64,000 nucleotides of DNA, taken from Candidatus Micrarchaeota archaeon (GTDB taxonomy: Archaea; Micrarchaeota; Micrarchaeia; Anstonellales; Bilamarchaeaceae). This document shows, one piece after another, positions 32,786 to 54,754 of this stretch. How positions within the stretch are numbered: the first letter of the stretch is position 1; every line of letters begins with the position of its first letter. The notes beneath the pieces are model-generated. The model saw nothing but the letters and a program-made list of their open reading frames with translations. It searched no databases and was not told the origin of the DNA. The position numbers and the translations under genes were made by a program. The stretch lies in contig JBDRCX010000006.1 in NCBI GenBank assembly GCA_043821365.1, positions 320,001 through 384,000 on the forward strand. The letters run 5' to 3'.

Positions 32786-32923
32786 GCAGGGATAGCAAAG
32801 CCTGGTCAAATGCGCAGGACTTAAGAAACTTCGCTGATGTTTGGCAGATGTCAAAGTTCCATCAAAGGTCTTGAGTTATCCTGTCGCTTAGTGCGTTCGA
32901 CGGTTCAAATCCGTCTCCCTGCA
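32786..32923 (+). tRNA. tRNA-Leu(TAA) with 52-nt canonical 37/38 intron (32826-32877)
   Basis: GCAGGGA/TCCCTGC acceptor; CAGGA/TCCTG anticodon stem; BHB central helix CUUA/UGAG. Confidence 0.94.
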
Positions 32924-48739: not shown

Positions 48740-48801
48740 GTATTATTCTTTTGGTCTTACTTTTAAAATCTTATGAGGAATAATATGAATTCTAGTTTCT
48801 A

Positions 48802-48881
48802 GTCAAAATCGCTTTGCGATTTTAACAAGTACTTGAAACCGAGTTTCAAGTTTCGCGAAAATTCCACTGAATTTTCACGAT
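48802..48881 (+). ncRNA. Conserved three-hairpin tRNA 5' leader, copy 2
   Basis: Homologous to 7211-7294 with compensated stems. Confidence 0.8.
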
Positions 48882-49094
48882 GCTGGGGTCGCCTAGTCCG
48901 GTAGGGCGGCAGGTTGCTATGCGCTTTTTGGAAAAAGCGCCCAAAAACAGATTGTTGAAACTGCTTCGCAGTTTGGGTGTTATCATACAAGAAGCGTGTC
49001 CAAAAACTTAACGAAAAAGTTTTGATCCAACTTTTTCCAAAAGTTGGAAACCTGTTGCGCATTGCGTTCAGGAGTTCAAATCTCCTCCCCGGCG
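48882..49094 (+). tRNA. tRNA-Ser(GCT) with 130-nt multi-hairpin 37/38 intron (48920-49049)
   Basis: GCTGGGG/CCCCGGC-G acceptor; GCAGG-TTGCTA|A-CCTGT anticodon arm; long variable arm; terminal BHB helix is weak. Confidence 0.88.
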
Positions 49095-54144: not shown

Positions 54145-54188
54145 TTGTTTCATTTGGCTGAAACAATATATATTAAATAATGAAACAA
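54145..54188. promoter_or_regulatory. Candidate copper-operon operator
   Basis: Perfect TTGTTTCA-N6-TGAAACAA (54145-54166) between TATA-like element and ATG; third half-site at 54181-54188. Confidence 0.6.
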
Positions 54189-54202
54189 TCATTTTCCACC
54201 TT

Positions 54203-54278
54203 ATGACAAGAATGTAAAACATTCTTGACTGTCGCGAACCAACGCGGCAGATTTCTCAAAAAGAGGTTCGCTCCATGG
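54203..54278 (+). mobile_element. ATG-bounded two-hairpin insertion element, copy 2 (at start of wHTH gene)
   Basis: ATG-A-[CAAGAATGT/ACATTCTTG]-ACTGTC-[GCGAACC...GGTTCGC]-TCC-ATGG; ATGs at 54203 and 54275 are 72 nt apart. Confidence 0.75.
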
Positions 54279-54754
54279 AGATCAGAAAAAAGATCATATT
54301 AGGTCTAGTAACTGTAGCTATTTTTATCTTCCTAACGACTGTGTTAGCATTTGTATTTGCACTTTATTCTCAAGGACAAGAAGTACCAGAAATACTAAAT
54401 CCATTCATTCACTTTCATATTGAATTTATGATCCTAATGGGTGTTTTTGGTTTGCTCTCTGGTCTTATTGTTTACAGTATAATGTCACAAACTTTGGAAA
54501 AACAAAAACAGATTGTCAAAACAAATACTGGGATAATAATGAAATTCTTGAGTGGTGACGAGCGTGAAATTCTTCAGCTTTTATTAACTAAAGATGGAAT
54601 GACAACCCAAAGTGAAATTGCCAAACTCCCTGGTATGAGCCGTCTCAAAGCGCATCGTATTGTAAAAAAACTGGAGACTCGAGGAATTATATACATTGAA
54701 AAATATGGTAAAATCAACATGATTAGAATTGTTAATGAATTAAAAGAAATTTAA
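54275..54754 (+). CDS. Two-TM membrane-tethered winged-HTH regulator
   Basis: Two TM helices, then LSGDEREIL...TQSEIAKLPGMSRLKAHRIVKKLETRGII. Confidence 0.85.
   Translation: MEIRKKIILGLVTVAIFIFLTTVLAFVFALYSQGQEVPEILNPFIHFHIEFMILMGVFGLLSGLIVYSIMSQTLEKQKQIVKTNTGIIMKFLSGDEREILQLLLTKDGMTTQSEIAKLPGMSRLKAHRIVKKLETRGIIYIEKYGKINMIRIVNELKEI

Follow-up and report, generated by a model that had tools for sequence, protein, structure and literature searches.

A short hairpin-forming repeat on the start codon of a regulator gene in a Micrarchaeota genome, probably a mobile element kept in the mRNA

The regulator locus and its inserted element

The window analysed here is a 64,000-nt stretch of the genome of a Candidatus Micrarchaeota archaeon of the Bilamarchaeaceae (genome G000; 1.2 Mb in 6 contigs, 36% GC). 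It contains a regulator gene whose start codon is occupied by a short inserted element (Table 1). Orthologs of the regulator were found in 26 of 30 genomes of the genus, and inspection of 11 orthologous loci located an empty site (..cacctc/ATGGA..) at the regulator start in 9, with about 23 nt between the upstream operator/TATA-like region and the ATG. In the closest relative (G405; 84% amino-acid identity) the junction reads ..cacctc/ATGGAGATCAG.., and the additional nucleotides of G000 lie at the slash. The preliminary description had placed the insertion exactly on the regulator start codon and had proposed a comparison with relatives lacking it; the empty sites located in 9 of the 11 loci bear out this placement.

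Table 1 Features of the regulator locus and of two further copies of the element.
Feature	Position in window	Strand	Remarks
Sibling copy, 51 nt, in frame in DUF460 gene	6179..6229	+	adds 17 residues
Conserved operator and promoter	54146..54187	+	nearly identical in 11 orthologous loci; upstream of the insertion, left intact by the element
Inserted element, 72 nt	54203..54274	+	orthologous site empty in most relatives; G000 has exactly 72 extra nt
uORF ATG ACA AGA ATG TAA (MTRM-stop)	54203..54217	+	ATG formerly the start codon of the regulator, now displaced; predicted 5' end of the transcript
Hairpin 1, CAAGAATG / loop TAAAA / CATTCTTG, perfect 8 bp	54207..54227	+	
Central near-palindrome GACTGTC, joining the two hairpins	54227..54233	+	invariant in 7 exact-core copies
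Hairpin 2, outer stem GCGAACC/GGTTCGC	54234..54271	+	
Shine-Dalgarno-like GAGGT	54263..54267	+	12 nt before the ATG of the regulator, within the enlarged loop of hairpin 2
Element tail TCC, then ATGG	54272..54278	+	ATG 54275-54277 is the regulator's working start codon; orthologs begin M(D/E)IRK
Host gene, 159-aa membrane-anchored winged-helix (TrmB/HTH_24/DUF7343) regulator	54275..54754	+	divergent from copper-ATPase/HMA operon
LeuRS copy, predicted read-through peptide across the element			contains ..MLGQNAKHSGLSR..

The operator/promoter region comprises a TGTTTCA-N6-TGAAACA palindrome, a TATA-like box (54172-54179) and a third TGAAACA half-site. The centre of the TATA-like box lies about 27 nt before 54203, and the box is equally far from the ATG in the orthologs. 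The palindrome is probably the regulator's own operator, common to the divergent copper operon. Across the genus (loci L035-L045) this upstream region was almost invariant, whereas the coding sequence was 66–84% identical. The relative G288 contains a diverged 96-nt insert at the same regulator site, which starts with the same ATGACAAGAA; this insert is too diverged for the covariance model described below, and its relationship to the element rests on a pairwise alignment of 74%. Insertions appear to have reached the regulator leader repeatedly. At locus L042 (G407:C71), an insert of another kind (about 55 nt), with no recognisable relation to the element family, separates the regulator promoter from the ATG.

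Two 12-mers within and at the end of the element, GACTGTCGCGAA and TTCGCTCCATGG, each have just two sites in the window (6202-6213 and 54227-54238 for the former, 6222-6233 and 54267-54278 for the latter), against chance expectations of 0.01 and 0.13 matches, respectively, at one mismatch or fewer. The identity of these 12-mers between the focal element and its sibling was confirmed as first described, with no further occurrence of either in the window, as were the 72-nt in-frame spacing of ATG 54203 and ATG 54275 and the presence of both the uORF and the GAGGT. Hairpin 1 had been said to differ in sequence between the two copies while remaining paired in each, and it does (CAAGAATG/CATTCTTG in the focal and CGAAAAAT/ATTTTTCG in the sibling copy). 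The loop of the focal hairpin 2 exceeds that of 54-nt copies by about 20 nt. In the minimum-free-energy form, an alternative hairpin is predicted between CTGTCGCG (54229-54236) and CGCGGCAG (54243-54250).

The 16S rRNA of this genome ends in GAUCACCUCC, and SD-like 5-mers were present upstream of 20% of ORF starts against a background of 2.3%, a nine-fold excess that peaked at positions −12 to −10. With the element come a start codon and, at this genome-preferred position, a GAGGT, so that expression is plausibly preserved, as had been proposed. Since it brings both a replacement start codon and a ribosome-binding site, the regulator most likely works without splicing. The element ends in CCATG, and an ATG is therefore recreated wherever it inserts on a start codon. 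From the TATA-like box about 27 nt before the ATG and the usual archaeal promoter geometry, we infer that the regulator mRNA of the relatives is leaderless, and the G000 transcript would begin with the element itself. Through the insertion, an mRNA predicted to be leaderless would then have gained a structured leader that carries the uORF MTRM-stop and GAGGT at −12. Because the old AUG opens the MTRM-stop frame, the regulator must start internally; translation would begin at the 3' AUG of the element, using GAGGU in the expanded loop of hairpin 2. The locus is a natural experiment in translation initiation, from a predicted leaderless mRNA to an SD-led, structured leader, with the empty-site relatives as controls.

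The RNA fold predicted for an 88-nt stretch that starts at 54203, and that comprises the element and 16 nt of the regulator's reading frame, had a free energy of −28.2 kcal/mol (z = −4.6). In this fold the GAG of the SD pairs with CUC and the AUG lies in a small internal loop, and such a leader, with its SD and AUG partly paired, could possibly damp or tune translation of the regulator. A reading that goes further, and that is compatible with a mobile-element origin, is that the focal copy has been co-opted as a cis-regulatory leader whose uORF and whose third stem, by partial masking of SD and AUG, tune translation. Besides the fold, two other inserts point in this direction: the diverged insert of G288 keeps AGAGGT upstream of a GTG start while its remainder has decayed, and a second start-codon copy, in G405 (L086), carries AGGAGG at the corresponding place in the hairpin-2 loop, with a uORF stop that overlaps the start as ATGA. 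However, 9 of the 11 relatives do without any leader, and the structure is that of the generic hairpins of the family; co-option is accordingly rather unlikely in our judgement.

A repeat family, its distribution and its targets

Copies of the family share the layout CCATGG, hairpin 1, GACTGTC, hairpin 2, (T)CCATGG. They are usually 54 nt long, with a family span of 46–72 bp and the focal copy at 72. The first 12-mer occurred five times in the G000 genome (the exact-core copies), and all five sites had the second motif or a near copy 20–40 nt downstream. All five also had a 7–8-bp hairpin of differing sequence upstream, and GCGAA..TTCGC with TCCATGG or a near copy downstream. A covariance model (CM) built from six copies gave 26 matches in G000 at E ≤ 10, of which about 15 were credible; it recovered the five exact-core copies and matched the focal copy at 54201-54280 with E = 7.7e-18. 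Diverged copies in G000 number about 10–15, one of them at the 3' end of a tRNA. Also among them is a second subtype that has TTGAAC..GTTCAA as its hairpin 2, with G(G/T)ACA after it. The element unit is two-fold symmetric: the CM matched the reverse strand of each copy too (CCATGG, hairpin, GACNGTC, hairpin, CCATGG), and the central motif reads GACNGTC on whichever strand.

Stem pairs over the family comprised 589 Watson–Crick, 6 G-T and 4 A-C pairs. Covariation was strong, as measured on the model-fitted alignment of model-detected copies, and all 8 pairs of hairpin 1 covary across the family. Stems that are so nearly purely Watson–Crick are a signature of DNA palindromes, and not of RNA that evolves through wobble intermediates. 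The sequence of hairpin 1 varies among copies while the core stays identical even across genera, a pattern not explained by simple neutral decay of transposed copies.

The family exhibited a patchy distribution. The exact core was also present in 2 of 400 other Micrarchaeota genomes, and CM matches were obtained in 17 of 31 genomes of the genus (0–18 copies each) and in 18 of 99 genomes, or 4 of 23 genera, of the family Bilamarchaeaceae; one genome (G417) contained at least 20 copies, many of them in tandem. A search for the exact core across 185,579 prokaryote species (596 Gb) returned 27 matches, about the chance level, the bacterial ones being classed as chance from this total count alone. 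Above-chance occurrence was restricted to Micrarchaeota, with 4 real matches in records titled Bilamarchaeaceae, Micrarchaeota and "ainarchaeum". The element matched no curated covariance model in Rfam (gathering threshold; E ≤ 1), and searches of plasmids and viral contigs gave no match. A description of this element family was not found in the literature search.

Some copies in G000 are arranged in tandem or near other repeats. A perfect 54-nt tandem array of the TTGAAC subtype (2.5 copies; G000 C6:72451-72610, L015:1483-1615) lies on the stop codon and a terminator-like hairpin of a gene, and each of its units repeats the last codons (..HAKK-stop). The stop codon of a PI3/4-kinase-like ORF is occupied by two tandem TTGAACG-type hairpins (G000 C3:96447-96495, L046:1288-1336), just upstream of the sole IS200-like (Y1_Tnp) gene of the genome (C3:96623-97072). 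The diverged copy at C2:188430-188487 lies next to a direct repeat (..aataaggatttttatgaggtgt..) in sequence that appears to be non-coding (C2:188380-188560).

Analysis of the empty sites revealed a target preference. All six documented empty targets approximate C(A/T)TGG(Y)AARAA, and this is also the 5' head consensus of the element; the insertion targets thus resemble CATGGCAAAAA, the element's own head. The head also resembled the downstream host sequence of the same copy (6.55 of 15 positions) more than that of other copies (5.07 of 15; permutation p < 5e-5). Given this resemblance, start codons and internal Met-Ala sites are frequently struck. The motif ATGG[CT]AA[AG]AA occurred 68 times in the G000 genome, 19% of the occurrences being start-like, which explains the many start-codon copies as well as the strong sense bias. 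Start-codon copies comprise the focal one, those of LipA and RadA and four or five in relatives; a KaiC-like gene of G405 has a start-codon copy that is absent from G000. Start-codon copies whose length is a multiple of 3 and whose frame is open yield an N-terminal extension instead. ATG duplication and a preference for (C)ATGG targets were seen in other copies too, in keeping with the ATG-targeting insertion proposed in the preliminary description.

Gene-associated copies had the orientation of their host gene in nearly every case (about 18 sense versus 1–2). A stricter rule, of sense orientation without exception, was obeyed by 11 of 11 copies in G000 and was broken by one MetRS copy in G405. 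The bias could hint at a role at the RNA level, but the target motif is sufficient to explain it. Both ends of the element are the palindrome CCATGG, a direct and an inverted repeat at once, and the flanking repeats measure 2–3 nt at the regulator and LeuRS and up to 17–25 nt elsewhere (13–25 nt in some copies), unlike a classical target-site duplication with its fixed length. At the empty site of LeuRS the 3' junction lacks an ATG; the CCATG tail is therefore part of the element.

The family consists of small, non-coding units in multiple copies that are polymorphic for presence or absence at orthologous sites, as is characteristic of MITEs. Copy number differs between close relatives, and tandem arrays are present in some. 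Searches for four enzyme families, in genomes that are incomplete, did not find an autonomous parent element or transposase: each of Y1_Tnp, the TnpB-type Zn ribbon, DDE_Tnp_1 and resolvase was absent from the majority of the five genomes richest in the element. The one IS200-like (Y1_Tnp) gene in G000 is bounded by GC-rich GCCGC(A/G)AAGCGGC hairpins unlike those of the element. A link to Y1_Tnp or RAYT was rejected, as the gene did not track copy number (the 10–18-copy genomes G405, G164 and G288 show none); the element was near Y1_Tnp at only 1 of 8 loci, in G109.

An alternative is that the palindromes CCATGG, GACNGTC and GCGAAC..GTTCGC mark the places where a dimeric DNA protein binds or cuts, for example a recombinase or a homing or restriction-like endonuclease, and are not parts of a transposable unit. 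The two-fold symmetric architecture, with CM matches on both strands, would suit such a protein, and so would a core that stays identical across genera while hairpin 1 drifts. The preliminary description had itself named bare 12-mers, occurring as a protein-binding site without hairpins, as an observation that would count against an insertion element; no such site was found genome-wide, and hairpins were present at all copies. Moreover, CCATGG, CATG and GACNGTC showed no restriction-type avoidance genome-wide, CCATGG and GACNGTC were not enriched either, and no candidate enzyme among the four families tested was common to the element-rich genomes. Presence and absence at orthologous sites shows that the whole unit moves. 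We therefore regard the protein-site explanation as improbable.

Copies within coding genes and the question of excision

Each of the 9 copies within coding sequence measures 51 or 54 nt, a multiple of 3, and contains no stop in the frame of its host. Their hosts encode DUF460, LeuRS, a metallophosphoesterase, LipA, a UbiD-like protein, MetRS (two copies), a phosphomutase-like protein and one more. The copies are read in all three frames, once antisense, and the element period is a multiple of 3 in 27 of 39 copies. Since these inserts have such lengths and leave the host frame open, no excision is needed and the insert can simply be translated; inside genes the element would add 17–18 residues. 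In the DUF460 protein the orthologs of G405 and G288 without the element read FMAKDAMD and FMAPQAMN, compared with FMA[KNRNFSTVANYKIRSMA]PDAMD in G000. The MetRS gene of G405 (L061, C27, 846-3029, minus strand) contains two in-frame copies that are both absent from G000, one of 54 nt, antisense and flanked by SGH..SGH, and one of 51 nt, sense.

The LeuRS copy was the one case that seemed to require excision. Its site is empty in 13 orthologs, which read EEYWE-MLG-QKGFVV at the insertion point, and compared with them the MAG has a clean 54-nt insert and, eight bases upstream, a run with a surplus A. The extra A (run GGGAAAATG, G000 C6:614659-614662, L007:1470-1473, outside the window) cuts the LeuRS ORF to 792 aa. 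It was missing in the contigs of all 3 public DNA runs compared (from at least 2 studies), so the frameshift is an assembly error, and there is no pseudogene and no recoding site. An intron or translational bypassing in LeuRS, considered for the MAG sequence with its TAG and +1 shift, was dropped as unnecessary, the real gene reading through the element.

The preliminary description had raised excision at a relaxed bulge-helix-bulge (BHB; UAUG/CAUG helix), after which the regulator would start MTIRKK. On this reading the focal element would be a small intron, with the archaeal splicing endonuclease cutting the pre-mRNA at a relaxed BHB formed by the two CAUG repeats and RtcB joining the ends. 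The flanking (C)AUG repeats are self-complementary and could form a 4-bp helix, and tRNAs of this genome do carry BHB introns. However, a scan of five element copies for a 4-bp central helix with two 3-nt bulges on opposite strands and at least one flanking helix revealed no BHB at a shared position; the best candidates lay at unrelated positions, and the CAUG:CAUG register was without flanking helices. The same scanner recovered the tRNA intron of the window at the canonical 37/38 site with a score of 10. Spliced introns would not need the length and reading-frame constraint seen in every coding copy, and the antisense MetRS copy is still in frame. In the uncorrected LeuRS, the sole in-frame excision in the BHB register (58 nt, AAUG/..CAUG/) deletes the conserved LG, and with the assembly error removed, the only case seeming to require excision is gone. 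The SD-like sequence acquired within start-codon copies and stems nearly without G-U pairs also argue against splicing. The excision proposal thus found no support in the elements, and we consider it highly improbable.

Comparison with archaeal BHB introns in protein-coding genes (cbf5; PMC2738675) leads the same way. Both are short inserts in archaeal coding genes, and the element occurs in a lineage with many non-canonical tRNA introns. In contrast to those introns, the element has no bulge-helix-bulge, and it has multiple-of-3 lengths, an open host frame and DNA-like stems; its family also includes antisense and intergenic copies and tandem arrays. The tRNA at window positions 32786-32923 contains a canonical BHB intron that is likewise 54 nt long and has no sequence similarity to the element; the equal length was taken as coincidence.

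Comparison with known mobile repeats and a possible mode of spread

We conclude that positions 54203-54274 are probably one copy of a family of short, non-coding, hairpin-forming mobile repeats of the MITE or Rickettsia palindromic element (RPE) kind, which would stay in the mRNA and is not an intron. Like RPEs (PMC10969869), the element is a short palindromic repeat found in frame in unrelated coding and housekeeping genes, and it is similarly patchy among related small-genome organisms (PMC10969869). RPEs are translated; for the in-frame, stop-free inserts described here we infer the same. RPEs are bacterial, about 100–150 bp long, and form families with conserved peptide-coding consensus sequences (PMC10969869), whereas the element is archaeal and measures 46–72 bp. 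It further differs in its two separate hairpins around GACNGTC, its CCATGG ends, its start-codon-like target and its ability to supply an ATG and SD. No sequence relationship between the element and RPEs was found, and none was expected.

MITEs and REP/REPIN sequences (PMC10969869, PMC3116915, PMC3184786) are, like the element, small, non-coding, multi-copy and hairpin-forming, with variable copy number. They move through enzymes supplied in trans or through functions of the host, as the element would, and like it they can carry regulatory signals to adjacent genes. In contrast to these classes, no cognate insertion sequence or RAYT was found for the element, its flanking repeats vary in length, and its terminal repeat is only the 6-bp palindrome CCATGG. 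REPs are extragenic, whereas many copies of the element lie inside genes.

The PATEs of haloarchaea are non-autonomous, have hairpin ends rather than long inverted repeats, and share the end hairpins of a resident IS. The element is likewise archaeal and non-autonomous and has hairpins at its ends. IS200/IS605-derived PATEs, from Haloquadratum, are listed in PMC10969869. Unlike the situation in PATEs, the end hairpins of the one IS200-like gene in G000 are different and GC-rich, and this gene is missing from the most element-rich genomes.

As to how such a unit could spread, our preferred reading is that an existing element is copied into a similar target by host recombination or repair or by template switching, and that templated correction at the DNA level within a hairpin keeps the arms perfect. 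A bolder, tentative model is that of a new kind of archaeal mini-element without its own transposase, whose double hairpin would pick CATGGCAAAAA-like targets through similarity to or pairing with the arm of hairpin 1. Being open in all frames, a multiple of 3 in length and equipped with a spare ATG and, where one is required, an SD, such an element would do no harm even at the most sensitive position of a gene. We regard this bolder model as a possibility still short of likely. The similarity of head and target, together with covarying hairpins nearly free of wobble pairs, raises the testable question of how short palindromic DNA can spread without a recognisable transposase.

Genomes of DPANN archaea, at about 1 Mb, are thought to be stripped down, and the one studied here appears to hold active selfish DNA in essential genes (LeuRS, MetRS) and on start codons. 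For annotation, the inserts are a source of spurious uORFs, spurious N-terminal extensions and seeming "introns", and they may mislead start-codon calling.

The 5' leaders of two tRNAs in the window (7200-7296 and 48790-48885) share a common three-hairpin cassette with TTGAACGG..CCGTTCAA and GTAC motifs. CM matches to these cassettes were weak and on the opposite strand (E about 0.02–0.05), and the cassettes may belong to a related family of hairpin modules.
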